Shown here: piece by piece, positions 2,602-28,286 of the stretch
Layout: every line of letters begins with the position of its first letter
Position numbering within the stretch: the stretch's first letter is position 1
Origin: a candidate division WOR-3 bacterium
GTDB taxonomy: Bacteria > Hydrothermota > Tepidihabitantia > Tepidihabitantales > Tepidihabitantaceae
Reading direction: 5' to 3'
Assembly (NCBI GenBank): GCA_039801365.1
Contig: JBDRUN010000001.1
Location: forward strand, 37,711-101,710
Length of the DNA stretch: 64,000 bases
Translations under genes and position numbers: made by a program
Notes under the pieces: model-generated
What the model saw: the letters and a program-made list of their open reading frames with translations, nothing else
Databases searched by the model: none
What the model was told of the DNA's origin: nothing

Positions 2602-3759
2602 TTGGCGCACACACCCAGGAGCATTGCATTGGCAACTAGCGCCTATCTGACAAGACTAAAAAAATCTCTTCCCCGTCTGGCCCGAAAGTACGGCACCCCG
2701 CTCTTCGTCATCTCCAAAACCCTACTATTGGAACAAGTCGCCAGATTCCGCAAACTCCTCCCGCGCGTCAAACCGTACTACGCAGTAAAGGCCAACTCCC
2801 ACCCGGCGGTACTGAAGCTACTAGCTCAGGCTGGTGTCGGCTTCGACGTCGCCTCGGTACCGGAACTAGAATGGGTACTAGCTGCGGGCGCAAATCCCAA
2901 ACACATCATCTTCGCCAATACCAACAAACGGCCTCAGGACATCGCCCTTGCCGCCAGCCGCAAAGTAGCACTCACAACCTTCGACTCTGAGTACGAACTC
3001 GACAAAATTGCGGCGAATGCACCCGGCGCCCAGGTGCTCGTGCGCACCAAAGTGCCCAACGTTGGCTCGGTGGTCGAACTCTCGCTCAAATTCGGTGCTG
3101 AGCCGGCGGACGTAATGCCCCTGCTGATCAAAGCCAAGCGGCTTGGGCTCAACCCCCGGGGAGTAAGCTTTCACGTTGGCTCCCAGTGCACCCACGGCGA
3201 CAACTACCTAGAAGCGTTCGAGCTGGTGAAAATTATACTTGCCGATGCCCGGCTCAAACAACTACCCTTAGACATAGTGGACATCGGTGGCGGATTCCCA
3301 ATCCGCCACTTCGCATCAGACGAAGACTGGCTTGCGTCCATGGCACCGGCGATGAACATGGAAATGAACCGGCTGTTCGATCCGAGCATTTCGATCATCG
3401 CCGAGCCGGGTCGGGCGCTTGTCGGCCCAGCCTGTTTGCTTGTAATGTCGGTCATCGGCAAGTCAATCCGCGGCAACAAACACTGGTACTATCTAGACGA
3501 CGGCGTGTACGGGTGTCTGTCCGGCATTGTCTATGACCACTGCAAGTACGAATACCACGTTTTCAAAAAGGGACCTACCCAGCTTACCACGCTGGCTGGC
3601 CCGACCTGCGATTCGATTGACATTATCTCAACCAATGAGGAACTGCCCGAGCTGAGTGTCGGCGACCTGGTCTATGCCGTAAACGCCGGCGCCTACACCC
3701 TGGCTAGTGCCACCAACTTCAACGGCATTCCGCCGGCGAGGGCAATCCTGGTCCCGTAA
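2602..3759 (+). CDS. PLP-dependent ornithine/lysine decarboxylase (group IV, eukaryotic-ODC fold)
   Basis: 385 aa. The [15 protein letters not shown] motif carries the PLP-lysine, and HVGSQ and GGGFP motifs are present. The size fits the ODC/LDC/carboxynorspermidine decarboxylase class rather than LysA. The substrate is not resolvable by eye. Confidence 0.8.
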
Positions 3760-3769
3760 GGAGGTTATC

Positions 3770-4936
3770 GTGAAACGAACCGGAAGAATCCGAAAAGACC
3801 TCTCTGAGGTTCCGGACTGGCTGCGCAAGCGGCGCTGCCCGCACAAAGCCCGCTACCTCTCCGGCAAGCGTATTCTGCCTAAGGGTATCACTGGCCGGGA
3901 AAGGCTCGATTCTCTGATTGACGATAAGTTCCTTGCCTACAATGCTGCCCGACTGCGCGAAGGCTGCCGGCTCTACGCCGAGAAAATGCTTGAACCCGAC
4001 GTAGTCGTCGGAATGAGTCTAGCTGGTGCGCTGACCCCGGCCGGTCTGGGCTGTTCCTGTCTGGTGCCGCTCATCAAGGCCGGCTTTATCGACTGGATTG
4101 TCTCAACCGGGGCCAACATGTACCACGACCTACATTTTGCCTTCAATCTGCCACTCCACGTCGGCTCGCATCTTGTGGACGATGCCGACCTCCGCCGCAA
4201 TGACGTGGTACGTATCTACGACGTGCTTTTGGCCTACACCGACTGCCTGTGCAGGACCGATGACATCCTGCGCAACATTCTGGTTCAGCGCGAGTTCCAG
4301 AAAGAGATGGGCACGGCCGAGTTCTACCACTTACTTGGTCGCCACGCTGCGGAATGGGAACGCAAGAACGGCCACCAGGACGTATCGGTCCTAGCCGCAG
4401 CTTACCGGTGCGGTGTGCCGATTTACACCAGCTCGCCCGGTGACTCAACCATCGGCATGAACATCGCCGGTCTTGAGCTCAAAGGGCTCAAGCTCCGCAT
4501 CAACCCTTCAATTGACGTAAACGAAACCACCTCCTATGTTCTGCATGCCAAACGCTCAGGCGGCAAGTCCGCGGTTGTTCTCATCGGCGGCGGCTCACCC
4601 AAGAACTTCATGCTCCAGACCGAGCCCCAGATTCAGGAAGTGCTGATGATCAAAGAGTACGGCCAGGACTATTTCTTTCAGATAACCGACGCCCGTCCCG
4701 ACACCGGCGGCCTGTCCGGTGCCACCCCGCACGAAGCGGTCTCCTGGGGCAAAGTTGACCCGAACCGGCTGCCCGATGCGGTCGTCTGCTATGCTGACGC
4801 AACAATGGCGCTACCGCTTCTGACCCATTACGTCCTTGCGCGGCACCGCCGGCGTCCGCACCGGCGCCTGTATGACCGACGGGCCGAACTGATGGACAAG
4901 CTCCGGCTGGAATTCTTCGCCCATTCCAGGTTCTAG
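3770..4936 (+). CDS. Deoxyhypusine synthase-like protein (homospermidine-synthase-like)
   Basis: Family motifs [11 protein letters not shown] and GGGSPKNF are present. I prefer the GTG at 3770 because an AGGAGG RBS lies 4 bp upstream and it sits right after the decarboxylase TAA. The track ORF starts further upstream at 3707. Confidence 0.8.
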
Positions 4937-8896: not shown

Positions 8897-9871
8897 GTGC
8901 CTGAGCTACCAGAACTTGAAGCAATCAGCGCACGGCTTCGCCTGGCCCTGACCGGCCGGCGAATACAAAGTCTGACACTCAACAAACCTTCGTGCCTCAA
9001 AACAACTGAGCCGAAACTGGTGGCGCTTGCCGATAACCGTATCATTACCATCATCAGACTAGGCCGGTTCCTCTGCCTGGGAACCGACCAGAAACTGTAC
9101 CTGTGCATCCACCTGATGCAGGACGGCGGTCTGTGTCTCTGCCCTGCTCACCACCCCATGACCACAAGCAATCTTCTCTGTCTCCACTTTGACAACGCCG
9201 AAGACCTGCGTGTCACTGAAGGCGGTACCAGACACCGGGTTCAGGTGCATCTTGTCACCGACCCGAACAAGGTCGCCTGGATTGCCGAGCTTGGTCTTGA
9301 CCCGCTTGGTCCCGATTTCACTCTCAACCGTTTCCGCCAGGCCCTGGCCCGGCGTAACCGAACGATCAAGAGGTTTCTCACCGACCAGCGAACTGTTGCC
9401 GGCATTGGTGGCTGCTACTCAGATGAAATACTCCACGAAGCCCGGCTTTCACCTTTTCAACCGACCGTCAGCCTGAAGCCAGAAGAGACAATTCGCCTCT
9501 ACGCCGCGGTGAAGAGGGTGCTCCACGACGCTATCGTGTATCTAAAGGCCCTGGACCACCTGCCCGACCGTCGCGACCGGACATTCCTCCAAGTCCACGG
9601 TCGTGCCGGGCAGCAGTGTTCCAGATGTGGCTCGGCGATACAGCGCGTCAGCGATGAGAAGTCAATCACATACTACTGCCCTGGCTGCCAGACTGGCGGT
9701 AACATCCTCGCTAACCGCTCCCCCTCCTCTTCCCTCCCACCTCAAGAGTTGGCAAGCTGGTCTAATGCCGCCTGCTTGCCCGCTGACCGCTCCCTCTCAT
9801 CTTCCCTCCCCCTTGAAGGGGGAGGGAATAAAAGGGAGGGGGATCGCCCGCTTTCCGGGCCCCTGAAGTGA
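8897..9871 (+). CDS. fpg: Formamidopyrimidine-DNA glycosylase (Fpg/Nei family)
   Basis: N-terminal MPELPELE (catalytic Pro2/Glu3). The C-terminal zinc finger CSRCGSAIQR...YYCPGCQ ends near 9715. The remaining roughly 50 codons of the predicted ORF run through the tandem repeat, so the true stop is probably earlier. Confidence 0.8.
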   Translation: MPELPELEAISARLRLALTGRRIQSLTLNKPSCLKTTEPKLVALADNRIITIIRLGRFLCLGTDQKLYLCIHLMQDGGLCLCPAHHPMTTSNLLCLHFDNAEDLRVTEGGTRHRVQVHLVTDPNKVAWIAELGLDPLGPDFTLNRFRQALARRNRTIKRFLTDQRTVAGIGGCYSDEILHEARLSPFQPTVSLKPEETIRLYAAVKRVLHDAIVYLKALDHLPDRRDRTFLQVHGRAGQQCSRCGSAIQRVSDEKSITYYCPGCQTGGNILANRSPSSSLPPQELASWSNAACLPADRSLSSSLPLEGGGNKREGDRPLSGPLK

Positions 9872-10007
9872 CCGCACGTTCCGCTCCCTTTCCTCTTCCC
9901 TCCCAGTTCAAGAATTGGCAAGTCGGGCTAATGCCGCGTGCTTGCGCGCTAACCGCCCCCCTTCCTCTTCCCTCCCCCTTGAAGGGGGAGGGAATAAAAG
10001 GGAGGGG
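9714..10007. repeat. Two tandem copies of an approximately 130-bp repeat (9714–9842 and 9881–10007), each containing the perfect hairpin TCCCTCCCCC-TTGAA-GGGGGAGGGA
   Basis: Direct comparison of the two segments shows about 85–90% identity. Each unit also carries an internal CTCTTCCCTCCC sub-repeat. Confidence 0.85.
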
Positions 10008-11217
10008 CCGCGAACTGGAATCTGGCATCTACAACCGTCTTGTTGTCGTCTCTTCTGAGATTGGTCGCGGCCACCCTTCTTACCTCGACTCGGTCATGCT
10101 TGCCCTGTCCCGACTTACTAGCGGTCAGTCTGACCAGACTGCGAAGCGGTTGACGGTTGCGGGCCTGTCTTCGGGTGTCTCGAGTCTGGCTTGGAAAGCC
10201 GTGCGCGCCGCCTACTACTTCGGCGGCCTTGGCGGCCCGGCGACGTGGCTGTACAACCGGTTACGCTCTCCCGACACCAGGCCATCTCGGCTGCAACTGT
10301 CAATCCTCGGCTCAGGCCTGCGCCGCCGTTTCACCGGCTACGAAGGCATCGTCATGGTTGACCATCCGCTCCTTGCCCACATTCTCGCCGGCGTCTGCCG
10401 CGTTGCCTATGTCCACGGCGAAATCGCTGCGCCTTGTTTCTGTGCCGTACCTTCTGTCTGGCGCACCTTTGTACCGCTAGAGTCAACTGCCGCCCGGCTC
10501 GCCGCGTGGGGCATGAGGCGTGAGGCGCTAGGCGTCTGTGGCCTTTTCATCGAGCCCCAACTGGTCGAACAGGCCGAGCCAGCCTATGCTGCTCGCATCC
10601 AACGCCTTGACCCGTCTTCTGATACCCGTCTCACTGTTGGCTTCTTTACCTCTGGAGCACACCCTCGTCCGCATCTGCGGCACATCATTCTTGCCGCCGC
10701 TTCGGTTGCCAGAGTCGGGCATAATGCAATCGTATTCTGGGGCCTCGGCTGGCTGCGTGCGGCCAAAGCTCAACTGTTGCTTCAGCGGTTGGCACTGCCC
10801 GACGGTTCGGTACGGCCGGTCTGGGCACGTACCCGGCAGGATGAAACAACTCGCACCGCTGAGCTATTCCCACAACTGGACGTATTGGTAGCTGCGGCCC
10901 ACGAACGTACCAACTGGGCTGTTGGCCTTGGTTTGCCGATGTTTGCGCTTCTCCCCCATATCGGCCCATTTGCCCGCGAGAACTTCGAGTTTGCACAGCA
11001 ACAGGGCGTCTGCCTTCCACTTGTGTCCGCAGACGATGCCGCGGCCCTGGGTTCATCGCTTGGCGCGCTACGCCGGTATGGGCGGCTGGCCGAGATGGCC
11101 CGCGCCGGCTGGCGCCGATATCCCATCACCGGAGCCGAAAGAGCAGCCCGCAGCCTGCTGGAGTCTATCGCACTGGATCAGCCCGGTCTTAGTAAGGCAG
11201 AAAGCGTCGTTGACTGA
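9868..11217 (+). CDS. Putative GT-B glycosyltransferase (MurG/MGDG-synthase-like); N-terminus uncertain
   Basis: The C-terminal half looks like a GT28-type fold (…VLVAAAHERTNWAVGLGLPMFALLPHIGPFARENFEFAQQQGVC…). There is an N-terminal SSEIGRGHPSY motif. The annotated start lies inside repeat copy 2, so the real start is probably downstream of 10010. Confidence 0.4.
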   Translation: MTARSAPFPLPSQFKNWQVGLMPRACALTAPLPLPSPLKGEGIKGRGRELESGIYNRLVVVSSEIGRGHPSYLDSVMLALSRLTSGQSDQTAKRLTVAGLSSGVSSLAWKAVRAAYYFGGLGGPATWLYNRLRSPDTRPSRLQLSILGSGLRRRFTGYEGIVMVDHPLLAHILAGVCRVAYVHGEIAAPCFCAVPSVWRTFVPLESTAARLAAWGMRREALGVCGLFIEPQLVEQAEPAYAARIQRLDPSSDTRLTVGFFTSGAHPRPHLRHIILAAASVARVGHNAIVFWGLGWLRAAKAQLLLQRLALPDGSVRPVWARTRQDETTRTAELFPQLDVLVAAAHERTNWAVGLGLPMFALLPHIGPFARENFEFAQQQGVCLPLVSADDAAALGSSLGALRRYGRLAEMARAGWRRYPITGAERAARSLLESIALDQPGLSKAESVVD

Positions 11218-11264
11218 GCAAAGCCGGCAGTGTAGTATGGCTGAAGTCTAACAAGGAGAGTGTA

Positions 11265-11747
11265 ATGCGAGTACTGTCCGTCGTTGCCGCGCTCGCGCTG
11301 TTCGTCATGAGCTGCGGGCAGAAGAAGGAACAACCGCCAGCGGCTCGAACCGAGCCGGCGTCGGTCGTCGTACCGGAATCGGTCAAGCCGCAGGCCGAGC
11401 CGGCCGCAGTGCCTGAAACGCCTAAACCTGCGCCGGCCGCAGTCGCGCAGCCAGAAGAGCCGGCCCGGCATCTGCCCAAGCTCTGGGATTTCTGGGCCAC
11501 CTGGTGCCCACCCTGCCGCGAGCAGAAGCCGATTGTCGAGGAGCTGGCCAAGGAGTACGCCGGCGTAGTCGAGGTCAAATCAATTGACGTTGACGAAAAC
11601 AAGGACCTTGCCCAGAAGTTCAATGTTCAGGCAATCCCAACACTAGTCTTTCTTGACACCCATGGCAACGAACTCTCACGCCGGGTCGGACTGTTTCCCA
11701 AAGATTCAATTGTCGGGCGATTCCGCACCCACGGGTTCATCAAGTAG
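11265..11747 (+). CDS. Thioredoxin-family lipoprotein (WCPPC active site)
   Basis: Lipoprotein signal MRVLSVVAALALFVMSCGQ. Active site WATWCPPCREQ. RBS AAGGAG upstream. Confidence 0.85.
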   Translation: MRVLSVVAALALFVMSCGQKKEQPPAARTEPASVVVPESVKPQAEPAAVPETPKPAPAAVAQPEEPARHLPKLWDFWATWCPPCREQKPIVEELAKEYAGVVEVKSIDVDENKDLAQKFNVQAIPTLVFLDTHGNELSRRVGLFPKDSIVGRFRTHGFIK

Positions 11748-14156
11748 GTGAAACACCACCAACCGCTGTTCGCCGGCCGGACCTGGGCCTGGGGACGTTA
11801 CCGCCTGGGGTTGATGATATGCGCCGGCTTTATGACGACGGTCGCCCACGGCCAGACCGGAAACGTCTTCATCGTCAACATTGACGGCCCGCGCTACACT
11901 GAAGGATTCGGCGCCGGTGCCACCAACATGCCGTATATCTGGGACAGTCTGCGGCCGCTTGGCACAACCTACTCGAACTTCTACAACACCGGCGTCACCT
12001 ATACCAACTCGGCTCACTCCACGATTGTCTCAGGTGTCCGGCAGTTGCTTCAGAACAGTCTGAACTGCGGCTCTCAGATTCGCACCCGTGACCCGGGCAT
12101 TGGCGAGTACTTCCGTCGACACACCGGCGCCCGGCTCGGCGACGCTGCGTACATTGATGGAAAACCCCTGATGTGGGGCTACCCGGCCAGCACCGCAGTC
12201 GGCTACGGACCGGCCTGGGCGCCAACGATTGTCTACACAACTGATGAAGATGACTGGGCCACCCTGGAATCAACCTTTGCCGTCATCAACCGCAATCACC
12301 CAAAGCTCTGCTACGTACTCTTCGGTGAAGTTGACCACGCCGGTCATACCGGCGACACCGCCAAGTACATCGGCTCAATCCGCAAGGCCGACCTGCTGAC
12401 CTGGCTGCTCTGGCGTAAGCTCCAGTCCGATACCGTGTACCGCGACCGTACGACGTTCATCATCACCAACGACCACGGCCGGCACGACGACGCCCACGGC
12501 GGCTGGAAGAACCATGGCTGCTACTGTCGTGGCTGTCGCCACGTGATGTTTCTTGCAATCGGCCCAGAAATCAGGGCCGACACGGTAATAACCACCATCC
12601 GCGACCAGATTGACCTGGCACCAACAATCGGCTATCTGCTCGGCTTCCCAACACCGTTCGCCCAAGGCACGATAATAGACGAAATGCTAAAGCAGCCCAG
12701 CGCCAGAAACCGGTGCGAAACGTACGGCGCAGGAAGCACTACCGGCCCTGACCAGAATGAGATAAACCTCTCAACCTCTGTGGCCCACTCTCGCGCCGCG
12801 GACATCGCCCGTACCAGCCAGGCCTTGCACGTCGTTTACGCGGACCACAGCCGGGGGCAGTTCGAAACCTACTACACACGCTCGACTGATGCCGGGCTCA
12901 CCTGGTCCACGCCCACAGTACTTTTCTCAGCCGAGTCCGGCACAAGCTACAGCGAACCAGTGATTGCTGCCGCCGGTGAAATCATTATCGTTGCCGCAAC
13001 CGGCATCCGGTGGCTGCCAGCCGAAACTACCTTCACCTGGGTGCTGAGCAAGCGCCGCTCGACCGATGCCGGGCTTACCTGGGACAGTATCGCTGACCTA
13101 GGAATCCTTGAGACCGTAAGCTCGCGGCCGGGAATCGCGGTCTTCGGTAACCGGGTGAGTATCGCGGCCGGGTGCGACCGCCGGATGGTCAACTTTGTGA
13201 GCGAAGACACCGGCGCCACCTTTGGTCCGGCTGCCGAACTTACCGCGGACGCCAAGCACTATCCGCAACGACCCGCTTCAGTAATCATTGACAGTGCCTG
13301 TGCGGTCTGGGAAGACTGCTTTGCCGACCGCGTACGTCAGTACCACGACCTCTGGTTTGACCGCGAACCCTGGCGCACCGAAGACATCCGCATAACCAAC
13401 AACGACGCTAACACCTACTCCTACCAGCCCGCAGTAACGCGGGACCTTGCCGGCACGCTCCACCTTGCCTACAGCCATCTACCTGACGCTGCGGCTGGCA
13501 ACCGCTGGCAGGTATGTTACCGCCGAAGCACCGACCGGGGCCTGACCTGGACAGGGCCTGAATCCCTGAGCATCGGAAAGATTGGCCGTGCGCCAGCGAT
13601 TCGCGCTGCCGGCGGCCGCTTGACCTGCGTCTGGCAGTCCTACGAACCACCGTACTGGAATATCAAAGGTTGTTTCTCCACTGACCAAGGCCGTACCTGG
13701 ACTGCACCGGGGCCGATGTCATCTCCGCTTGCCTTGTCAGCCGAACCCAGGCTTGCTGTACGCGCCGACACCGCATACGTCGTCTGGGAAGACAACCGCG
13801 ACGGCAACTGGGAAATCTACTTCTCAAGGCACATCTTCGCCGGGTCGGCAAAGCAGGAAGAAAATGCCCCACCGCCCACCGTCCGCAATCAACTCGAAGT
13901 CAATCCGAATCCGTGCCGCGGCTCTGCTGTCCTGCATATCTCGTACCGCACCGGACGCAATACGTCTCTTGCCATCTACGACGCCTCCGGTGCACTCGTC
14001 CGTTCGCTTCCGGCGCCATGCTTAGTGCCCAGCGCGTCGAGCATCGTCTGGAACGGCCTTGACGATGCTGGTCAGCCCCTGCCGGCCGGCGTTTACTCCT
14101 GTATTCTGAGCACGAACGAACACACTTGTGCAAGACAGCTAGTCCTGCTCAGATGA
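11748..14156 (+). CDS. Secreted multidomain protein: AlkP-superfamily phosphoesterase-like domain + BNR/Asp-box propeller + T9SS C-terminal domain
   Basis: GTG start directly after the upstream stop, with a signal peptide. The N-terminal domain carries metal-ligand-like HTGD and DHGRHDD…HGGWKNHG motifs. There are multiple SxDxGxTW Asp-boxes (RSTDAGLTW, STDQGRTW, RSTDRGLTW). The tail is …LAIYDASGALVRSLP…VWNGLDDAGQPLPAGVYSCIL. Confidence 0.75.
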   Translation: MKHHQPLFAGRTWAWGRYRLGLMICAGFMTTVAHGQTGNVFIVNIDGPRYTEGFGAGATNMPYIWDSLRPLGTTYSNFYNTGVTYTNSAHSTIVSGVRQLLQNSLNCGSQIRTRDPGIGEYFRRHTGARLGDAAYIDGKPLMWGYPASTAVGYGPAWAPTIVYTTDEDDWATLESTFAVINRNHPKLCYVLFGEVDHAGHTGDTAKYIGSIRKADLLTWLLWRKLQSDTVYRDRTTFIITNDHGRHDDAHGGWKNHGCYCRGCRHVMFLAIGPEIRADTVITTIRDQIDLAPTIGYLLGFPTPFAQGTIIDEMLKQPSARNRCETYGAGSTTGPDQNEINLSTSVAHSRAADIARTSQALHVVYADHSRGQFETYYTRSTDAGLTWSTPTVLFSAESGTSYSEPVIAAAGEIIIVAATGIRWLPAETTFTWVLSKRRSTDAGLTWDSIADLGILETVSSRPGIAVFGNRVSIAAGCDRRMVNFVSEDTGATFGPAAELTADAKHYPQRPASVIIDSACAVWEDCFADRVRQYHDLWFDREPWRTEDIRITNNDANTYSYQPAVTRDLAGTLHLAYSHLPDAAAGNRWQVCYRRSTDRGLTWTGPESLSIGKIGRAPAIRAAGGRLTCVWQSYEPPYWNIKGCFSTDQGRTWTAPGPMSSPLALSAEPRLAVRADTAYVVWEDNRDGNWEIYFSRHIFAGSAKQEENAPPPTVRNQLEVNPNPCRGSAVLHISYRTGRNTSLAIYDASGALVRSLPAPCLVPSASSIVWNGLDDAGQPLPAGVYSCILSTNEHTCARQLVLLR

Positions 14157-14205
14157 CAGGTATCTGTACTATACTTTTCTCGGTTCTGAGATGAGAGGAG
14201 GCAGT

Positions 14206-16542
14206 ATGAGAGCATCGTTACTGTGTGTCTTGGCCGCAGCTGCTTTCGGCCAGGTGACCGAGAACGTTTTCATCATCAACATTGACGGCCTGCGCTACAC
14301 TGAAGGATTCGGCGCCGGCCGGACCAATATGCCGTTTGTCTGGGACAGCCTGCGACCCCGCGGTGCAATCTACACCGAACTCTACAACACCGGCATCACC
14401 GTGACCAATGCCGGCCACTCAACCATCACCGCCGGAGTCCGGCAGCTCCTACAGAATAACGCTGACACACTCCTCTCGCCGGTCCGGCCACGTGAACCAA
14501 GCGTGGCCGAGTACTACCGCCGGTACAAAGGCGCGCCCGCGACCGCCGCTGTCTTCGTTAGCGGCAATCCGGCCTGGCGCTACCCGGTCAGCACCTACCC
14601 GGGTTTCGGCGACACCTGGGCGCCAACCATCCGGCAGACCAAAGAAGACGACCTTGAAACCTGGGACTCAGTGCAGGCGGTCATCAGCCGGTATCACCCG
14701 AAGCTATGCTACGTACTCTTCGGAGAAGTTGACCTTGCCGGCCATACCGGCGACACCGCCTACTATATCGGTGCTATCCGCCAGGCCGACTCGCTTACCT
14801 GGCAGCTCTGGACCCGGCTCCAGGCCGACACCCTCTATCGCAACCGCACGACGCTCATCCTCACCACCGACCACGGCCGGCACGACGACACCCACGGTGG
14901 CTGGAAAAACCACGGCTGCTCCTGTCGCGGATGCCGACATCTCATCTTCCTTGCGGTCGGCCCGGAAATCATTGCCGACACAATGATAACCGTAATCCAC
15001 GACCAGATTGACATCGCGCCAACCATCGGCTGTCTGCTCGGATTCCCCACGCCCCTGGCCCAGGGCTCGGCAATGACCGAGATGTTCATGAAACATCCTC
15101 CCGCCGTGCCGCAGCCGCAGCACTGGCCAGCCGACGCCGACGTGAACGTCTCAAGGTCACCGGGTCTGTCCCGCTCAGCCGACATCATCCGCACTGCTGC
15201 CGGCCTGCATGTCGTCTTCTCCGACCGCACTGGCGGACAGTACCAGGTCTACTACTGCCGCAGCACCGACGGCGGCTCAACCTGGTCCGTGCCAAAGGTA
15301 ATCATGCCGGCTGCGTCACCATCCGGCTGTCTTGAACCGGTCATTGCCGCAGTCAGCGATACGCTCATCGTCGGCTGTGCCTGCCTCCGCTGGGTTCCAA
15401 CCGAGACAACATTTGTCTGGACGCTATCAACCTGCCGCTCGACCGATGCCGGTGTAACCTGGGACACACCCTTAGACATTGACACCCTGACAACCGTAAG
15501 CTGCAAGCCGGCAATCACATCAATCGGCCGGCGAGTCTTCATTATTGCTAACCTCGACAATCAACTGAAAAGCTACCTGAGCCGCGATGCGGGCGCGACG
15601 TTCGACTCGGGCGCAGCCGTGGCAGTCGAAGGTAAGTACCACCCCCAGTGGCCTTCGGCCACGACCCTTGACACATCCTGCTATGCAGTCTGGCAGGCCT
15701 GCAACCCTGACCTCGCTCACCCTTACCACGACATCTGGTTCGACTGCGAGCCGTGGCACGAAGAAGACGTGATGCTGACCCATAACGACACCCTCAGCTT
15801 CTCCTACCAACCATGCATGACCCGCGACGTGTACGGCGTTCTCCACGTCGCCTACTGCCACCTACCCGACGCTTCAGCTGGCAACCGCTGGCAGATAAAC
15901 TACATTCGCAGCCTGGACCGTGGCCTTACCTGGAGCATGCCAATCAAGCTCAACACCGTAAAGGTTGGCTATACACCTGCAGTCCGCGCCTCGATTGACG
16001 GCCGGGTATCGTGCGTTTGGTCGGTGTTCAGTGACCCGCTCCGCCGCATCAACGGTGCCCGCTCAACCGACATTGGCCGAACCTGGTCTGCACCTGAGCC
16101 GATTTCGGCCCTGAGCGAGTTTGCGGTCGAGCCGAAACTGGCGGTCCGCAGTGACACCGCGTTTGTCGTCTGGGAAGACAACCGCGACGGTAACTGGGAA
16201 ATCTACTTCGCCAAAAAGGTCCTTACCGGGGCCGGCCTGGCCGAGGAAAGCCCAACCCCTCACGCCGTACGCCCTGTGTTGACTGTCGAGCCAAGCCTTT
16301 TCCGCGGCTTTACGGTCCTGCGTGTCGCGGCAGGCACCGCGCACAGTGCGTCACTTGCCATCTACGACGCCTCCGGCGCACTCGTCCGTTCGCTCCCAGT
16401 ACCAAGATTGGCACCCGGTACGTCAAACATCGTTTGGAATGGCCGCGACATCGCTGACCACCCCCTGCCGGCCGGAATCTACTTTGTGCGGCTTGAACTG
16501 CCCGGAGCCGAACTCACCCGCAGCCTGGTGAAACTGGACTAG
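14206..16542 (+). CDS. Paralog of the previous gene (AlkP-like + BNR propeller + T9SS tail)
   Basis: Same architecture, with long stretches identical to 11748–14156. I prefer the second ATG at 14206, after the GAGAGGAGG RBS. Confidence 0.75.
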   Translation: MRASLLCVLAAAAFGQVTENVFIINIDGLRYTEGFGAGRTNMPFVWDSLRPRGAIYTELYNTGITVTNAGHSTITAGVRQLLQNNADTLLSPVRPREPSVAEYYRRYKGAPATAAVFVSGNPAWRYPVSTYPGFGDTWAPTIRQTKEDDLETWDSVQAVISRYHPKLCYVLFGEVDLAGHTGDTAYYIGAIRQADSLTWQLWTRLQADTLYRNRTTLILTTDHGRHDDTHGGWKNHGCSCRGCRHLIFLAVGPEIIADTMITVIHDQIDIAPTIGCLLGFPTPLAQGSAMTEMFMKHPPAVPQPQHWPADADVNVSRSPGLSRSADIIRTAAGLHVVFSDRTGGQYQVYYCRSTDGGSTWSVPKVIMPAASPSGCLEPVIAAVSDTLIVGCACLRWVPTETTFVWTLSTCRSTDAGVTWDTPLDIDTLTTVSCKPAITSIGRRVFIIANLDNQLKSYLSRDAGATFDSGAAVAVEGKYHPQWPSATTLDTSCYAVWQACNPDLAHPYHDIWFDCEPWHEEDVMLTHNDTLSFSYQPCMTRDVYGVLHVAYCHLPDASAGNRWQINYIRSLDRGLTWSMPIKLNTVKVGYTPAVRASIDGRVSCVWSVFSDPLRRINGARSTDIGRTWSAPEPISALSEFAVEPKLAVRSDTAFVVWEDNRDGNWEIYFAKKVLTGAGLAEESPTPHAVRPVLTVEPSLFRGFTVLRVAAGTAHSASLAIYDASGALVRSLPVPRLAPGTSNIVWNGRDIADHPLPAGIYFVRLELPGAELTRSLVKLD

Positions 16543-16621
16543 CCGCCCGTCGCCTCTATCTTCAACCTATTCGCCCTTCACCCGCACGCGTGGTCTGGTC
16601 ACTCCCGACCGTTGACGCTAA

Positions 16622-17118
16622 TCACCAGGTTGGGGTTACACACTAATTTGCGTTTCTTGGCACTGACGCAGCTTAGTCTTCTCCCAGGGCGCTAGCTTCC
16701 AGACCTTGGGCACGGAGACGCACAAAAGCTTCGGCACCAGCATGACCAATGACTCGGGCACAAGCACGAGTAAGCCGACCCAGAACCCGTGCAGCCGACA
16801 CTTCCAGGCAAAGCCCAATAACGCGCTTCTGTAGCCGCCTGGGTACGTACAAGAGAACTGACCCGGCAAGCTACTACGGTGCAGGGGCTTCAGTCCCACC
16901 CGCGCAGAGGCCTGCGGGCAGACTCAAGCTAAGACCCCGGGCTTGGCCGCCTACCCGGCGACCCCTACCCTTGAATTGTCGGCCTTGAGTTTCGCCCCAA
17001 CTTGCGGATAACACTGGCGTTGTGCACCATGGACAGGAATTGGCATCACCGACCGTCGTGCCTAGCCGATTGTCTGGCCACGGCACCAATACCCGGCTTG
17101 ACTTTCCGGCCCAACCAG
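16622..17118 (+). ncRNA. rnpB: Probable RNase P RNA (bacterial type A-like)
   Basis: A 570-bp GC-rich gap without ORFs. Plus-strand matches to RNase P motifs: GUCCCACCCGCGCAGAGGCC resembles E. coli M1 CUCCACCCGGAGCAAGGCC. CACGGCACCAAUACCCGGCUUGAC near the 3' end resembles CACGACAGAACCCGGCUUAUC (P4 3' strand). GAGUAAGCCGACCC is a P4 5'-strand candidate. The terminal GGUUGGG/CCCAACC complementarity looks like P1. The boundaries are approximate. Confidence 0.4.
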
Positions 17119-17130
17119 AGAACATATTTC

Positions 17131-17685
17131 ATGAAGAAAAACACCCGCGAGACCCTGCTGACGATTCTGTATATCCTGCTTGGCATCGGCGCTGCCGTTC
17201 TGGCCGGATACTGGGTCATCGGCCGGCCGTTCTTTCGCCACGGCAGCATCCTTGTACGGTTTCTGGTCGTCGGGTTCTCCGGCTCGCTGGTCTATGCCGC
17301 AGCCCGACTCCGGGGCCTGGGCTATTGCATCATGATGATCGTGCTCATGTTCCTTGGCCAGGTTGCACTTGATCCGCCCCTTCGTGCAGAGTCAGCAATC
17401 ATCGCCGCGCTCTGGGCTCTGCCGGTCGGGATTGCGTTCACGGCTTCCGGCTTCACATTCAAGTCTCTGGAACGTATCCCAATTGGCAAATTCATCATCA
17501 TGGCCCTGTTTGTCGGTCTGGGATACGGCATCGGCATGGTCGCCTTCTTGATAAGGGCACACGCGGCACTACACCTCGCTCCAGTCTTGCGGCAGACGGT
17601 TGCCGGACTCAAGGTCGGTGCGCTCATGGGGTTGGGCATGGAAATCGTTGACCTGGTCGGCAAGGCGCTCAAGGGCCAGGACTAG
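17131..17685 (+). CDS. Hypothetical integral membrane protein (5–6 TM)
   Basis: Hydrophobic throughout. The start is moved to the ATG (MKKNTRETLL…) that follows the non-coding gap. Confidence 0.5.
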   Translation: MKKNTRETLLTILYILLGIGAAVLAGYWVIGRPFFRHGSILVRFLVVGFSGSLVYAAARLRGLGYCIMMIVLMFLGQVALDPPLRAESAIIAALWALPVGIAFTASGFTFKSLERIPIGKFIIMALFVGLGYGIGMVAFLIRAHAALHLAPVLRQTVAGLKVGALMGLGMEIVDLVGKALKGQD

Positions 17686-17703
17686 CCGCAGAATACGACC
17701 GTA

Positions 17704-18303
17704 GTGGCAACGCTATCAGCCGTCCTTGACTGGCATTTTGCCCGCTATCCCCTGCTCCAGGCATCGGATATCTACAAACTTGTTCATCAGGGCGTATTCG
17801 GACCCGGACATCTCCTAATGGACACAGACGGTCAATCGCTTGTTCACGGCCGGGCGTCAGAGTCGGCTCAGGCCCGAATGCATGCCGATGTACGTCGAGG
17901 ACTTGAAGAAGAGCTTGTACGGCTGTCATCGCGAGGCTCTGCTTCCGAAGAAACCGAGCCACTTGACCCGGACGGAAGGCTCATCCGCGTCAATCTTGCC
18001 TGGTTGCGCAGAGACACCGACGCTATCTTGCGCCTGACCCATGCCGTCGTGCAGACATGCCTGATAGTCAAGCCTGACCTGCAAATGACGAACCGACGTC
18101 TGTCTGAAGCGGTCGCCTGGTGTGGAAGAAACATACCTGACCAGGTAGTCTGGCTTGAAGAAATGGCCGAAGCCGGAGCCAAAGAGAACTACCCGCCCGT
18201 TCATCACTCAAGGGTGTATGCGACTGCATACCACCCAGCCTACCGCGTTGTCAGACAGGACTTCTGGACACCGCGCCGCCGAGGCAGCCCCGCAGGCCCC
18301 TGA
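17704..18303 (+). CDS. Hypothetical protein
   Basis: 199-aa ORF tightly following the membrane protein gene. No motif I recognise. Confidence 0.4.
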   Translation: MATLSAVLDWHFARYPLLQASDIYKLVHQGVFGPGHLLMDTDGQSLVHGRASESAQARMHADVRRGLEEELVRLSSRGSASEETEPLDPDGRLIRVNLAWLRRDTDAILRLTHAVVQTCLIVKPDLQMTNRRLSEAVAWCGRNIPDQVVWLEEMAEAGAKENYPPVHHSRVYATAYHPAYRVVRQDFWTPRRRGSPAGP

Positions 18304-19571: not shown

Positions 19572-20383
19572 CTAGTCCACGAGGAAACCGACCCGGCATT
19601 TGGCAAGAAGCTCAAGATTAGCCTTTGAGCCGTGAATTTTTGCCGCGTCATGGGCCGAAACTACAAAGTCGCAGGCATTTGTGCCGGTAACACCTATTGC
19701 CCTCACGGCCAGCGGATTCGCGCCGATACGTTCGCTGGCCAGTGCCTCGGTCCGGCTCTGGTAGTAGGCTACCATGCCGCTTACGGCAAGCTCTTTTTCC
19801 TCAACAAACCCCGGGCCATACACCTCCAAGTCCTTCTCATTCACGACGCGCGGGAATAGCGCCGGCTTGTAACCGAGCCCTCGGCCATCAATGAGAATAC
19901 CGGTGTACCCGGGATCTGTTCCAGTTTCATACGGGACCAGCTCGACGCCCTCAGGAACATCCACCCCCTCTGGCCACTCCTGACCGCAGCATGGACAGGC
20001 GACCCGGCCCAAGAGTCGGCCTCCGCCTGTCTTTGGCAAGATCTGGACCATGATGCTGCCAGTCAGCGGAACTCTGTAGTCGGTTGAGACCGAGCCATCT
20101 GAGCCAAATCTAGTTTCGCCCTGAATGACTGGAAGCGTCATGCGCTCAAGCCGCAATGCCTCACGGGGATGACTGGTCAGGAATTCTCTGACCGTGATGT
20201 CCCGGTCATAACTTGCCCGACCAAGCACCTCGAGCACTCGTGCGGTCAGATTTCCATGAGCAAACGACCCCAAGTTCTGCCGTTCGAGCATCGTCACGTA
20301 AACAGCCTGACGACTGAAGTCCAGCGTGTCGGCAGAAACAAGAGTGATCCCGACTACTAACATCAAAATCACAGTAGACTTCA
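19572..20383 (-). CDS. Hypothetical secreted protein
   Basis: Start reset to MKSTVILMLVVGITLVSA (signal peptide) with a GGAGG RBS 6 nt upstream. A CPCC motif is present. No family recognised. Confidence 0.5.
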
Positions 20384-20430
20384 TTCCAACCTCCGCTATG
20401 TCCTCAATGCTGAGGACTATACCCGACATA

Positions 20431-20845: not shown

Positions 20846-22270
20846 CTATTCCAGTTTGACTACCCGGCAAGCCGGAGAAGTCGAATCCACAGGACAGACC
20901 AGATATACTCCGGCCCCAAGCCCCTTCCCAATCTGGTCTCCGCGCTGTACCGCCACCCTGTTGCCGGCCGGGTCGAAAACCGACACCAGTCCCTGCTCAC
21001 GGCCCGGCAAAACCCCGTGCGTACGGAATACGCTTGGCACCACCAGCGGCTTCGGGGTCGCTGGCGACAGGTGCGCAATGTCGAACATTCCGACGTTGCC
21101 GCTGGTATTGCGCCGATGATATATCTCCTGGTTATAGATATGGCCACCCAGTGGATAGCCGTCGTGAACCACGTGCACAGTATTGCGCGAAGTGATGACA
21201 TGATAGTGATGGGTATGGATGGCCGATTCGCAGGAAACGACGAAGTCCGGTTCCCAAGTCAGCCCCCGGTCAGTAGAACGGGTATAGTGGGTCACATACA
21301 TTATCATGTCCATTCTGACGGCATGCAGGTACTGACCCGAAGCCCACAGATTCACGCTCCACGTGTGCGCCTGGTCGTTTGATATCTGCCGCTCCGGGGC
21401 CCAAGTTGCGCCGTTGTTCGTCGAACGAAAGTAGTAGAACTGGGAGAAGTTATCCCGGCCATCAACGTAGGCCAGATGGACATTCTGTCCTTCGGCCGCA
21501 ATACAGGGTGAGTCAGCTTTGTCTGGTGTCGGAAACTCGTATTCCGGAAGCCAGTCCTTGCCGCCGTTGGTTGAACGCCGGTATGTCACCCGCTCTTGCC
21601 AATAGTTCTCCCAGGCAACGTGTACAAACCGGCCCGATACGGCAATCGTCGGACACCAGTCGCCTGTGTTGATACCGATGGCCAACTCCTGGCCCCAAGT
21701 CCGGCCACCGTCTAATGACCGCCGGTAGAACACGTTGTCATCCCCGGCTAGACCGGCTCGATCGTCGTGAAACACCAGATGCAACGTGCAGCCGCTCGCA
21801 ACCATAACAGGAAAGTAGGCGCCCAGCTCACCGGTAGTGGCAAAGGTAAGCCGTGTCTGCTCTCCCCAGGTTGTTCCCCCGTCGGTTGAGCGCATGTAGT
21901 AAATGTCCGACTCCCGCAGCCGACCCGACATGTTACGCTCGTCGGTCCAGACAAGATGCAGTGTGTCACCAATCGCCAGCAGCGAAGGATAGCCCTGCCA
22001 AAAAGGGTCGTTCACAATACACCGCTCCGGCTCCCAAGTCGTGCCGTTATCAAACGAACGGATGTAATACAAGTCGCCATTGCCGGTCTTGTAGTCCCAC
22101 CACACCAGATGCAGAGTATCTCCGACCGCGGCAATCGGGAACTGCGTGCTGTTCGAGAGATACCCGGTGCTGTCGTGAAATGTCAGCCTGCGGGCCGGTT
22201 CCCACTGACCGACGGCCGGCGTAGTCAAAAGAACAACGACGAACACGGGACACAAAGCAGTCAACTTCAT
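20846..22270 (-). CDS. Secreted BNR/Asp-box repeat propeller (sialidase-like fold) with T9SS C-terminal domain
   Basis: Start at MKLTALCPVFVVVLLTTPAVGQ with a GGAGG RBS. Repeated S/TxDxGxTW boxes (RSTDGGTTW, RSLDGGRTW, RSTNGGKDW, RSTNNGATW, RSTDRGLTW). Tail …GAGVYLVCPVDS…. Confidence 0.75.
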   Translation of the reverse strand: MKLTALCPVFVVVLLTTPAVGQWEPARRLTFHDSTGYLSNSTQFPIAAVGDTLHLVWWDYKTGNGDLYYIRSFDNGTTWEPERCIVNDPFWQGYPSLLAIGDTLHLVWTDERNMSGRLRESDIYYMRSTDGGTTWGEQTRLTFATTGELGAYFPVMVASGCTLHLVFHDDRAGLAGDDNVFYRRSLDGGRTWGQELAIGINTGDWCPTIAVSGRFVHVAWENYWQERVTYRRSTNGGKDWLPEYEFPTPDKADSPCIAAEGQNVHLAYVDGRDNFSQFYYFRSTNNGATWAPERQISNDQAHTWSVNLWASGQYLHAVRMDMIMYVTHYTRSTDRGLTWEPDFVVSCESAIHTHHYHVITSRNTVHVVHDGYPLGGHIYNQEIYHRRNTSGNVGMFDIAHLSPATPKPLVVPSVFRTHGVLPGREQGLVSVFDPAGNRVAVQRGDQIGKGLGAGVYLVCPVDSTSPACRVVKLE

Positions 22271-22435
22271 CTTACCTCCCGCGATTGCAGCGCGGCCGCC
22301 CCTGCACCATTGCCGAGACAACAGCCGTATAGACCTGAACATCTATCTGGCATCCAGGACTGTCTCAATGGTACGAACAGCCGCCAGCGCGTTGCCGTAT
22401 CTCTTACATCGCGTGCCACTGTACTCATGGCGTCG

Positions 22436-25400
22436 TTACTTCTCTACCACCAGCTTCTGCGTTTGGGGTAGTCCGGTTGCGTCCAACCTTACCAGGTAGA
22501 CGCCGGCCGCAAACTGCCTCAGGTCCAGCACGATTGGCAACCGAGTGTCGGTCACCCGTTGGCCGAGAACGCACCGGCCTGCCGCGTCAAACACGCGCAC
22601 CCAACCCCCTGGCCACCTGGGTTCCTGACCACTCAGCCTAAGTATCGCCCGGCCGTTCGCAATCGGATTAGGGCTCACTGTAAGCTGCGTCCCGCCCGCC
22701 ACCGCCTTGTCTGCCTGCACTCCGGCGTAGAGTGTATTGCGCCGGGTGTAGCGTGCCGGGGCTTCGACCCAGCGCCAGAACTCAAAGGTCTTGTTCCCCT
22801 TCAAGGCAAACAGGGCCAAGTCTCGATACCCTGCAATGTCCCCTCCGGCCTTCACATACTTCTTCTTGCCGGTCGAACCGTTGCCCGGCATCGTGTCCAG
22901 CTCCTGCCAACTGTCGCCATCCGGAAAGTAACGGAAAAACTGCTGTGTATTGCCACCCTTCAAGGCGTACAGATTGTCGCGAAACCAAGCGCCGCCTGCT
23001 CCGTCCTTTGACTTCTTCTTCTTGTCCGGCCTGCCGCTGTGCCAGCCTGATACCGGCATCCCCTTGAGCGTGTCAGTCCACCTCTGGGTCAGTACGTCAT
23101 AACGGAACATGCAATGGTGTGGGTTCTCCTGTGTCTTATCGTAATACTTTGCCTGGTGGCAATATATCTCGGACACGGCCTGGCCCCTCTTGTGGTAAAC
23201 AAGGAACGAGCCTTTGTCGTACTTCTGCTTGGCGACACCATAAGGTGCCTCATCCAACGTATCCCAGCGGCCGGCCAGCACATTGTAGCGGTAGAACTCG
23301 GTCTTGCCACCCTTCAACAGATACACATAGCCGGTATCGTGCTGCTTCTTGGCATACACCATGTCGGTTCCCCCCTTCACCTTCTTGCCGTACTTGCCGA
23401 GCGGCACGTTTGCAAGCGAGTCCCAAGTGTTGGTGGTAACGTTGTACCGCCAGAACCCGAGCGTATTATTGCCCTTGACCATATAGACATAGCCATCGCC
23501 AAACACTGCGGCGCAGCCCTTAGAGGGCGGTTTCCTGCGGCCGCCCTCGTAAGACGGAATCGTCTCCAAGACAAAGAACGTGTCGTCCTCTGGCTCGTAC
23601 CGGTAGAAGTCAACCATCTTGTTACCCTTGGCAACGTACAAGACCTTGCGTCCATCGGTTGCCGCCCCCCCCTCGATTACAAAGGCACCATCCTTCACAC
23701 CCTTTGCCCCTGTTTCGTGCGGCACCGACTTCACCTCCACCCAGCCCGGAGGCCAGGAGGGTCCCTCCTGCCTTGTCGAGAAAGTAAACGGCCCGTTCGA
23801 GCTCCATTTTTCACCGTCGGTTGCAGTAATTGCCTTCACGTCCCACTTGTAGGCCGTGCCGTACTTCAGGGCCGCAAGGTCGTAGGTCCAGGTGTTGTCT
23901 GTAAGCCCGGTCTTCACTGGAGAACCTTCCCGCGGATTTGCGGGCGACTCGGTAAGGTACACTTCATAGGTCAACGTGTAATCAGGACTTGCGTCTTCCC
24001 ACTCAAATTTGATTCCGGTCACTGGCTGGCGTAAGGCCAAGTCGGCTGGCTTGGTCAGATTGAAGTCCTTTGGCTCAGGTATCGGTGACCGGACCGTGAA
24101 CGTCGCGGGATTGGATTCGCCACCGCCTGGATTCGGATTGAACACGGTGATTGGGTACTCACCCGCAACAAGCAGGTCCCCGGCCGGTATTGCCGCTTCA
24201 AGTTCAGTCGCACTCTTCCAGGTCGTTCCCCTGTCCGAGCCGTTGAACCGCACGACCGAGCCTGGGCCGAACCCGGTTGTTGGAACGAAGTTCGTGCCGG
24301 TAACGGTCATTGTAAACCCTGGGTCGCCGACGTTCTTCTCATCCGGGTCAATGTCAGTAATCGTGGGCACCAGGTTCTTCACCGTGAACATCACCGGGTC
24401 TGACTCACCACCACCCGGACTCGGATTGAACACGGTGATTGGGTACTCACCCGCAACAAGCAGGTCCCCGGCCGGTATTACCGCCTCGAGTTCGGTCGCA
24501 CTTTTCCAGGTCGTTCCCCTGTCCGAACCGTTGAACCGCACAACCGAGCCTGGGCCGAAGGCAGTTGTTGGTACAAAGTTCGTGCCGGCAACGGCCAGTG
24601 TAAACCCTGGCTCACCAACATTCTTCTCATCCGGGTCAATGTCAGTAATCGTGGGCACCAGATTCTTCACCGTGAACATCTTCGGATCAGACTCCCCACC
24701 CCCAGGCGCCGCGTTGAACACAGTAATCGGGAACTCACCTGCGACTTCAAGGTCCGAGGCCAGTATCGTCGCCTCCAGCCTGGTATTGCTCTTGTACTCC
24801 GTAGCCCTGGGCGAGCCGTTGAACCGCACGACCGAGCCTGGGCCGAACCCGGTTGTTGGAACGAAGTTCGTGCCGGTAACAGTCAGCGTGAACCCAGGTT
24901 CGCCCGCATTCTTCTCAGACGGGTCTATGCTTGTGATACTGGGCCTCAGGTTCTTCACCGTGAAGCTGTGGGTACCGGTACTCGGGTACTTGTCGTTAGT
25001 CTTCACCTGGTCAGTACTGAGTTCGGTGCTGCACGTCACGGTGTAGGTGCCAGCGTAGAGTGTGACGTTCACCTGGCTGAAGTTCACCGCCTTGCCGGCT
25101 TGGAGCGGGTCAAGACTCGGCGTCTTCTGGTCGCTCCAGACCTGGGTGCCGCTGGAGTTGTAGATGCGGAGTGTCACCGGCACGGTCGGCTCGCTGGTCG
25201 AGGTGAAGTTGGAAATCGTCGCAACCGGCGTAATCGGGTCGCCGAAGTTGTACTCTGAACCATTGGCCGGAGTTGTTATCCCGACTGCACCCACGTCGTG
25301 CGGCTGCGTTGCCGTGTAGTTGATTACCAGATACGGAGCAGTTCTCTTCCAGCCATAGATGTACCGAGCCGCAGTACCGCCCGTACCCCTCTTTATGCCG

Positions 25401-26611: not shown

Positions 26612-26627
26612 TGCTGCCTCCTTTGAT

Positions 26628-28286
26628 TCAGGGTTCTTTCAAACTTCTTACAACTGCCATTCGGCCGGTCGCAATCGCGTCTTTAGTTTCGAACCGAACC
26701 AGATACACGCCCGCGCTCAACCTCCGAAGGTCTAGCGTGACACCCAATGACCAGTCCTCACTCCTCCTGTTCCCTCCGCCTTCCAGAAGGGTGCGGGGAA
26801 TGTTGCGGACAAGAACGCACCTGCCCGCAGCGTCGAATACGCGTATAGTGCCGCCATTTCGTTCAACCCACTGTCCGGCAAGTCGAAGCATTGCCTGGTC
26901 GGACGTAACCGGGTTCGGCACAATGTGGATCCCCAACTCGGCAACAGGTATCAAGGCCGACTGGGAACGCATCGCAACCGGATTGCCACCGCGGTTGCGC
27001 CGGTAGTATATCTCGTAGAAGCCTGTGCTCTCCGGTATCATCCCATCAAAGAGTACGTGCACCGTGGTGTCGCTGACCGCGACCGCGTGGTCCATGCACT
27101 GCATCCGGAAATAGTCCGATACCTCGACTCCCGGTTCCCAAGTCACGCCGCCATCGGTCGAGCGGTGATACCATATGTGGTAGAGGTCCATTAGCAACCG
27201 CACGACATGCACATTTTTGCCCGACACAGCAACATCGGCTGACCAAGTGAAATCGCTATCCTGCGTCAGACAGGTCTCCGGCTCCCAGGTTACTCCGTTG
27301 TCAATCGAGCGGCGGTAGTACAACTGATCGAAGTTGGTCTGGCTGCCGTCAGAATAGACGACATGGACTGTGTCATGGGAAACGTCAACACACGGCGCAT
27401 AGGACACCGTCTCGGTCGGAAAACTGACTTGGGGCTGCCAGGTGTTTCCGCCATCGGTCGAACGCCGGTACCATACCCGCAGACTATTGAAGTTCTCCCA
27501 CACGACGTGCAGGTTCTTTCCCCACACGGCAATCGTCGAGAGCCAAGCTCCCATATCGCTCGCAATTGCCCGATCCTGGGTCCAAGTCTGACCTCGGTCG
27601 GTAGAACGCTTGTAATGAATCAGGTCGTCGCCGTTCCGGTCGTCTTCCCAGACCAGGTGCACGGTGTCGCCACGGCACGCCGCGCACGGGTGCCATCCTC
27701 CATATTCGCCGGCTGGGTTGGTGCAAAGCAGCGTTTCCGGCTGCCATGTCTCGCCTCCATCGGTTGAGCGCCGGTAATAGATGTCAGCCTCACGGATTCG
27801 GCCCGGCTTATTCCGTTCATCGGTCCAGAACACGTGTACCACCAAGCCAGAAACTGCCACCGTCGGCATCGCCTGATAGGCAGAGTCAAACGTGAGCTGT
27901 ACGTCTGGCCCCCAGGTTGTACCACCGTCAGTAGAACGCTTGTAGTACACTTCGTCGTTGCCGGTACGTTCATCGTACCAGACCGCGTGCAGTGTGTCGC
28001 CCGACACAGCCAGACAGCGCTCACCCCCGCTCGAAATCCAGGAATGGCCCGGCGCGCTGGTCAGCCTTTCGTAAGGCTCCCAGTCGACACCCGGCAAGAT
28101 AGCTGGCCGGACAACGATTCGATTGATAACTCTCCGCGCTCCGGCATGTTTGTTCGGTCGGATGCCCTGTTCGGCCCAAACCCACGTTGGTAGACCAAGG
28201 CCGAAAACCAGTAGGACAGCAGCCCACAAGACCGTCTTTCCTCTTGCTCTTGCTGCCATCTTCGCATCTCCTCTCATATCTCCCAC
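26628..28286 (-). CDS. Secreted BNR/Asp-box propeller protein with T9SS C-terminal domain
   Basis: Signal peptide. RSTDGGTTW, RSTDGGETW, RSTDRGQTW, RSTDGGNTW, RSIDNGVTW and RSTDGGVTW boxes. Tail …AGVYLVRFETKD…. Confidence 0.75.
   Translation of the reverse strand: MGDMRGDAKMAARARGKTVLWAAVLLVFGLGLPTWVWAEQGIRPNKHAGARRVINRIVVRPAILPGVDWEPYERLTSAPGHSWISSGGERCLAVSGDTLHAVWYDERTGNDEVYYKRSTDGGTTWGPDVQLTFDSAYQAMPTVAVSGLVVHVFWTDERNKPGRIREADIYYRRSTDGGETWQPETLLCTNPAGEYGGWHPCAACRGDTVHLVWEDDRNGDDLIHYKRSTDRGQTWTQDRAIASDMGAWLSTIAVWGKNLHVVWENFNSLRVWYRRSTDGGNTWQPQVSFPTETVSYAPCVDVSHDTVHVVYSDGSQTNFDQLYYRRSIDNGVTWEPETCLTQDSDFTWSADVAVSGKNVHVVRLLMDLYHIWYHRSTDGGVTWEPGVEVSDYFRMQCMDHAVAVSDTTVHVLFDGMIPESTGFYEIYYRRNRGGNPVAMRSQSALIPVAELGIHIVPNPVTSDQAMLRLAGQWVERNGGTIRVFDAAGRCVLVRNIPRTLLEGGGNRRSEDWSLGVTLDLRRLSAGVYLVRFETKDAIATGRMAVVRSLKEP

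Follow-up and report, generated by a model that had tools for sequence, protein, structure and literature searches.

What kind of protein results when an alkaline-phosphatase-like domain is joined to a β-propeller and a secretion tail, and is the product an enzyme? The question is raised by two tandem genes of a candidate division WOR-3 bacterium, here called paralog 1 (p1) and paralog 2 (p2). They lie in a 64,000-nucleotide (nt) stretch of contig JBDRUN010000001.1 (assembly GCA_039801365.1, positions 37,711 to 101,710), which was analysed whole and is referred to as the window; coordinates below are those of the window. p1 (11748..14156, + strand) encodes 802 amino acid residues (aa) from a GTG start, and p2 (14206..16542, + strand) encodes 778 aa from its probable true start. 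The p1 product consists of a signal peptide, an AlkP-superfamily domain, a seven-bladed Asp-box propeller, and a C-terminal domain (CTD) of T9SS (type IX secretion system) type. We propose that p1 and p2 are surface or extracellular two-metal (Zn-type) phosphoesterases of the NPP/PafA branch of the AlkP superfamily, a reading that we consider likely.

An original prediction, made from the DNA sequence alone, described two tandem genes with a shared architecture. This is indeed the arrangement: the open reading frames (ORFs) lie on the same strand, 34 nt apart when the maximal p2 ORF is taken, and the proteins, which have the same three-part architecture, align end to end in BLASTP with 55% aa identity over 784 residues. 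Both are in GenBank as products of a candidate division WOR-3 metagenome-assembled genome (MAG). p1 is 100% identical to MEO0080701.1, named "exo-alpha-sialidase", and p2, begun at the ATG at 14206, is 100% identical to MEO0080702.1, named "FlgD immunoglobulin-like domain containing protein". Residue numbers for p2 are those of its maximal, 783-aa ORF (14191-16542); 5 is to be subtracted for the 778-aa protein.

The Predicted N-Terminal Catalytic Domain

The compact AlkP/NPP-like domain extends over 11853..12692 in p1 (+ strand, aa ~36–315), as placed by alignment to p2, by motif positions, and by Pfam matches to Sulfatase, Metalloenzyme, and Phosphodiest, and over 14251..15090 in p2 (+ strand, aa 21–300). 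Within the window, p1 and p2 are the only proteins that carry it. The Pfam matches are weak and partial. For Phosphodiest (PF01663) the scores are 28.5 bits for p2 and 18.7 bits for p1, against a cutoff of 23, and the p2 match spans only positions 105–220 of the 342 in the model. Neither NCBIfam nor Pfam has a model specific to the domain, and a single-sequence search of the PDB was uninformative (best E 0.05).

The assignment comes from the family profile. A profile of 65 family members matches Xanthomonas NPP at E~1e-9, and the alignment places IDGLR on the NPP metal ligand D54, VDxxGH on D210/H214, and DHG on D257/H258. Residue T72 is aligned to the NPP nucleophile, T90 (TVT-NAGH versus SLT-FPNH), and in the p2 model a helix at residues 72–81 starts at T72. 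The domain has the AlkP-type α/β core fold. The prediction of an AlkP-like N-terminal domain is thereby borne out and made more exact, in that the domain is NPP/PafA-like. The six metal ligands of p2 are D32, D181, H185, D227, H228, and H241, of which the first five are aligned to NPP. Every catalytic motif is kept in both paralogs. In p1 the intact motifs are IDGPR45, TYTNSAH84, VDHAGH195, DHGRH242, and HGCYCRGCRH256, and the motifs quoted in the original prediction are present in both proteins, as AGHTGD and DHGRHDD.HGGWKNHGC.CRGCRH.

Conservation follows the same residues. In 82 full-length relatives no change is seen at D32, G33, R35, D154, D181, H185, Y216, D227, H228, G229, R230, or H241, and almost none at T70, T72, H76, and N89. 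When the comparison is widened to 241 diverged N-terminal domains, the catalytic core residues are 97–99% conserved: D32 is found in 233, T72 in 236, D181 in 239, H185 in 238, D227 in 239, H228 in 240, and H241 in 239. R230 is kept in 237 and N89 in 205. The nucleophile column contains Thr in 236 domains and Ser in 3.

Three features distinguish the family. The core is minimal, ~280 aa, and its last metal His stands 13 residues after DHG. DHG is directly followed by an invariant Arg (R230) and a usually conserved His (H231). Finally, a C-x-G-C motif (C245 and C248 in p2) is found four residues after H241; the full sequence, H-G-C-x-C-x-G-C-R-H, occupies p2 residues 241–250 (window ~14911-14940), and the same motif is found in p1. 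At the C245/C248 positions, C/C occurs in 191 of the 241 domains, C/D in 11, D/C in 9, and D/S in 11. Because some variants pair one Cys with an Asp, these residues seem to fit better as metal ligands than as a disulfide. Since the match to PF01663 is partial and marginal, and since DHG and H241 are separated by 13 residues, the domain is best treated as a separate compact subfamily and not as the NPP family proper.

Comparison with Known AlkP-Superfamily Enzymes

Comparison of the domain with known enzymes gave the following figures, which carry no label of unit: 28.5 for PafA, 28.4 for Xanthomonas axonopodis (Xac) NPP (23% identity), 27.1 for ENPP4/ENPP7, 26.9 for phosphonate monoester hydrolase, 26.2 for PhoK, ~25 for S1 sulfatases, 22.8 for phosphopentomutase, ~22 for LtaS/EptA/YejM, and ~20 for classical alkaline phosphatase. 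The differences from the enzymes with the higher figures are as follows. Compared with the NPPs (Xac NPP, PDB 2gsn/7mw8; ENPP4/6/7; PF01663), the WOR-3 domain is smaller, at ~280 aa. In NPP the last metal His follows an insertion of ~100 residues (D257/H258...H363). NPP has Met directly after DHG, where the WOR-3 family has its invariant Arg, and the C-x-G-C after the last His and the fusion to a propeller are features of the WOR-3 family. The PafA/PhoK-type alkaline phosphatases (PDB 5too, 5xwi) share only 17–20% identity with the WOR-3 domain, which is about half their size, and the family-specific R230 does not share a segment with the PafA Lys/Arg pair that binds monoesters. A PglZ-type site had also been proposed; no PglZ domain (PF08665) is among the Pfam matches at E<=1 for either protein, and this candidate was dropped.

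The Propeller

The Asp-box (BNR) propeller of p1 extends over 12762..13844 (+ strand, aa ~339–699; BNR_2), with bounds set by homology to the modelled propeller of p2, which is seven-bladed and extends over 15142..16230 (+ strand, aa 318–680). Here the original prediction of a BNR propeller was right: PF13088 (BNR_2) scores 54 bits for p1 and 47 bits for p2, above the cutoff of 31.4, and each protein has five Asp-boxes, at aa 379, 438, 485, 594, and 644 in p1 (found by regular expression) and at aa 358, 417, 464, 574, and 625 in p2. The AlphaFold2 model of full-length p2 (pLDDT 92.7, pTM 0.85) has seven propeller blades. The whole-protein pTM of 0.85 suggests that the N-terminal domain and the propeller are packed in a fixed arrangement.

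Is the propeller itself an enzyme? A glycosidase or lyase activity there, on the model of GH33 sialidases, PL25 ulvan lyase, or Vgb lyase, would make the proteins bifunctional. The "exo-alpha-sialidase" name of p1, assigned by PGAP, speaks for this, as do the Foldseek matches of the propeller, in which sialidases come first by E-value, with low TM-scores, and which include PL25 lyase and Vgb lyase. Also, R328, H340, Y355, H552, and Y555 are ~80% conserved. GH33 enzymes have a six-bladed propeller, an Arg triad that includes the RIP motif, a Tyr/Glu nucleophile pair, and an Asp acid/base. What the WOR-3 propeller shares with GH33 sialidases and other Asp-box propellers is the fold and the S-x-D-x-G-x-x-W/F motifs. 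It has no RIP motif and no conserved Arg triad, Tyr/Glu pair, or acid/base Asp, and the model has seven blades, not six. Because the sialidase catalytic residues are not conserved, the GenBank name is unsupported, and GH33 exo-alpha-sialidase was rejected. The only invariant residues of the propeller are two Trp; its other conserved positions are Asp-box or strand residues. The best target-normalised TM-scores in Foldseek were to PHL lectin, Dfer_1899, and PL25. The likeness to seven-bladed propellers (CylK, Vgb lyase, the PLL/BP39L lectins, YncE, and PL25) is structural only, at 6–11% identity. A catalytic propeller is reckoned to be improbable. To judge from its sequence and model, the propeller is most likely a substrate- or surface-binding module or scaffold, and probably non-catalytic.

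The C-Terminal Domain and Probable Export

The N-termini of p1 and p2 are signal-peptide-like. At the other end, the last ~85 residues form a β-sandwich, preceded by a low-confidence linker (p2 aa 682–691, pLDDT<50). This immunoglobulin (Ig)-like sorting domain occupies 13890..14153 in p1 (+ strand; PF13860, 30.8 bits, cutoff 27) and 16279..16539 in p2 (+ strand; PF13860, 40.1 bits). In its C-terminal site, its length, its Ig-like sandwich, and its flexible linker it resembles the T9SS type A CTDs (TIGR04183/PF18962); it differs in falling below the TIGR04183 cutoff and passing that of Pfam FlgD_ig (PF13860). PF18962 itself was not reported for p1 or p2. The domain aligns with the tails of those Kelch and BNR proteins of the window whose PF18962 scores are above threshold, and with these tails it shares the motifs PNP, (I/V)(Y/F)DA.G, and PAG.Y.VRL, and many orthologs have PF18962 at the same C-terminal position. 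These two facts make T9SS export of p1 and p2 likely, and the T9SS tail of the original prediction stands as a T9SS-type CTD. At least four other window proteins have PF18962 tails, which suggests that the organism uses T9SS.

Probable T9SS cargo is encoded by a minus-strand run at 20846-32436. It comprises a BNR protein (498 aa), a 1391-aa Kelch protein with a PF18962 tail, a second BNR protein (552 aa), a 259-aa protein without assignment, and two Kelch proteins with PF18962 tails (412 and 433 aa). A TrmB/MarR-like regulator (31531-32436) is found at the upstream end of the run. The two BNR proteins, at 20846-22342(-) and 26628-28286(-), are more distant relatives of p1 and p2 in the propeller only, with ~23–27% identity to it.

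Proposed Mechanism and Function

Our proposal is that Sec export, followed by probable T9SS secretion, would place p1 and p2 at the surface of the cell or beyond it, with the C-terminal Ig-like domain serving as the putative signal for outer-membrane export and anchoring. T72, activated by metal 2 (D32, D227, and H228), would attack phosphorus, while metal 1 (D181, H185, and H241) would stabilise the leaving group. A covalent phospho-Thr intermediate would form and then be hydrolysed. N89 is predicted to contact a phosphoryl oxygen, and R230 and H231, beside the metal ligands, probably contact the anionic substrate. With no counterpart of the long NPP capping insertion, the active site is probably accessible to bulky or polymeric substrates, which the attached propeller also suggests. 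The propeller, packed against the catalytic domain, would act as the binding module or scaffold proposed above. Candidate substrates are the mono- or diesters of, for example, nucleic acids, phosphoglycans, teichoic-acid-like polymers, or lipid head groups; the invariant Arg may lean slightly towards highly anionic ones. The probable role is hydrolysis of extracellular organophosphates for nutrient scavenging.

A bolder version of this proposal can be framed, which we think unlikely. It holds that the DHGRH...H-x3-C-x-G-C domain is a distinct, undescribed AlkP class, in which an extra Cys/His(Asp) metal site would staple a short active-site loop; that the rigidly attached seven-bladed propeller would present polymeric phospho-substrates (extracellular DNA, phosphoglycans, or teichoic-acid-like polymers) to the uncapped bimetal centre; and that the class would be confined to the uncultured FCB group and other candidate phyla.

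Several points weigh against a secreted scavenging phosphoesterase. The roles of H241 as sixth ligand and of N89 as the equivalent of NPP N111 rest on position and invariance. TIGR04183 scores p1 at 15.5 bits and p2 at 17.5 bits, below the cutoff of 23, and no T9SS machinery (Sov/SprA, PorK-N, PorU/V) is encoded in the 64-kb window. When 634 neighbour ORFs from 67 loci were clustered and four single loci were inspected, no conserved neighbour gene, such as one of the Pho regulon or a transporter, was found to back phosphate scavenging. Lastly, a tail-less distant relative (P0065), from a Thermodesulfobacteriota MAG (JBHHUW010000003.1), lies in a cluster like those for exopolysaccharide or O-antigen, and this location hints that at least some members modify glycopolymers instead of scavenging.

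The P0065 cluster (loci L002/L029) encodes a MurJ/MatE flippase, three separate PF01663 Phosphodiest proteins, a radical-SAM/SPASM enzyme, an acetyltransferase, an LVIVD protein, GH42, GT4, and Wzy_C proteins, and a methyltransferase. It may be a pathway for a phospho-modified exopolysaccharide. As for neighbours elsewhere, the exceptions to the lack of conservation are lineage-local synteny and, in Ignavibacteria, a BNR/Ycf48-like protein upstream. No Pho genes are found in the window.

A related possibility is that p1 and p2 are not hydrolases at all. A phospho-group transferase of the LtaS/EptA/OpgB-like kind would decorate a cell-surface glycopolymer with a phospho-alcohol; we give this little chance, about the same as that of a catalytic propeller. 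More improbable still is a protein that, in the manner of YejM/PbgA, retains the AlkP fold for binding and not for catalysis: the seven catalytic-core residues are conserved throughout the diverged domains to the degree expected of an active enzyme. A formylglycine-type sulfatase or phosphonate-monoester hydrolase (PDB 4upk and others), in keeping with the "sulfatase-like" of the original prediction, is scarcely credible, as a regular-expression search over residues 1–130 of each protein finds no C/S-x-P/A-x-R motif, Thr is the nucleophile, and the two-metal His/Asp set is complete, unlike the single-Ca/Mg site of sulfatases.

Returning to the two-metal phosphoesterase, p1 and p2 are clear members of a well-known superfamily, fused to modules that are common in the secreted proteins of these phyla, and they challenge no current concept. 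The original prediction did not recognise the fusion as a described enzyme class, and our search of the literature on AlkP/NPP-propeller fusions and WOR-3 phosphatases likewise found no description of the fusion or of the subfamily. The public names of p1 and p2 pass over the one domain whose catalytic signature is clear. Because of this, anyone who searches MAGs of WOR-3 or Ignavibacteria for sialidases or phosphatases would misclassify them. For comparative work on AlkP-superfamily enzymes, the compact domain also provides a natural bimetallo scaffold of minimal size.

Distribution

The combination of AlkP domain, BNR propeller, and tail is not unique to the window; it recurs in public MAGs under generic annotations. 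The full architecture was found in more than 80 proteins and at 64 reference-genome loci, nearly all of them from MAGs. The hosts are WOR-3, Ignavibacteria, Chlorobiaceae, Anaerolineae, Gemmatimonadota, Thermodesulfobacteriota, Planctomycetota, Nitrospinota, TA06, and Glassbacteria. Relatives are named "alkaline phosphatase family protein", "sulfatase-like hydrolase/transferase", or "T9SS type A sorting domain-containing protein". A search of 1.84 billion representatives with the N-terminal domain alone gave 333 clusters at E<=1e-30 and 852 at E<=1e-10. Proteins with this domain are 290 to 2839 aa long, and in them it stands alone or is fused to BNR, Kelch, right-handed β-helix, disaggregatase-repeat, or fn3 modules. 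All of these partners are extracellular or surface-type modules. The compact domain is thus a sizeable uncharacterised family, almost MAG-only in the reference-genome scan. If the family is a major extracellular phosphoesterase in these lineages, it bears on the turnover of organic phosphorus in sediments and anoxic habitats.

The Duplication and Its Age

A recent duplication had been read from supposed long identical stretches. The two genes are 65% identical in nt sequence and share no exact match longer than 27 nt, their products share no identical run longer than 16 aa, and identity at third codon positions is mostly 0.3–0.7. A second WOR-3 MAG has a ~95.5%-identical ortholog of each copy, both on one contig. 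On the nt identity, the short longest match, and the separate orthologs, both a recent duplication and gene conversion were rejected. In a neighbour-joining tree each paralog groups with its ortholog, and the two resulting clades are sisters on long branches. Because each copy has its own ortholog and the sister clades have long branches, the duplication is judged to be lineage-specific but old. At position 182, beside the metal-1 ligands, p1 has His and p2 has Leu.

Tandem pairs of the same family were also seen in a Gemmatimonadota MAG. This MAG, CAYMWF01, has at least six copies of the N-terminal domain on four contigs (L042, L044, L048, and L061), two tandem pairs included, and is a case of independent paralog expansion.

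Gene Starts and Local Context

The maximal p2 ORF begins at an ATG at 14191. Because a GAGGAGG Shine-Dalgarno sequence at 14195-14201 precedes the second ATG, at 14206, the latter is the probable real start. Upstream of p1, a gene at 11265..11747 (+ strand) encodes a thioredoxin-fold lipoprotein (Pfam Thioredoxin, 71 bits) with a WCPPC active site and a lipobox, ..VMSC. It is preceded by an AAGGAG Shine-Dalgarno sequence and by a promoter-like site, TTGACT-17-TAGTAT (11210-11238). No nucleotide separates its TAG stop from the GTG start of p1, an arrangement that suggests translational coupling. The lipoprotein is a probable operon partner of p1 and p2, in this genome only: the adjacency was not seen at the 64 other loci of the architecture. 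A link between the lipoprotein and the enzyme's C-x-G-C motif is possible.

Downstream, a 460-nt gap at 16543-17001, 3′ of p2, contains no genes, nothing resembling a terminator, and no match to Rfam. No RNA genes in or beside the locus came up in Rfam and tRNA scans. Nearby ORFs of 449, 227, 199, 285, and 259 aa, at positions that include 9868-11217, 17002-18303, 19572-20429, and 28291-29070, have no Pfam match (E<=1e-3 or 1e-4).

Other Features of the Window

A cluster for uptake of zinc or another metal is found at 38779-43118, ~22 kb from p1 and p2. It encodes a TonB-dependent receptor, followed by ZnuA, a ZnuC-like ABC ATPase, and a ZnuB-like permease. The segment from 52249 to 63658 is defence-island-like and includes genes for HsdM (52249-53844), a Fic-HTH protein, a DUF5655 protein, and a 907-aa DUF499 protein (60935-63658). 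Within it, a gene for a "23S rRNA intervening sequence protein" (57091-57633) is found between an EcoEI_R_C fragment (57623-58075) and a helicase-C/ResIII fragment (58085-59098); the two fragments may represent a split HsdR. Finally, polyamine-related genes at 2602-4936 and 35724-37940 encode an Orn/DAP/Arg decarboxylase, a deoxyhypusine-synthase-like protein, and an unusually long (738 aa) protein with a spermidine-synthase domain.

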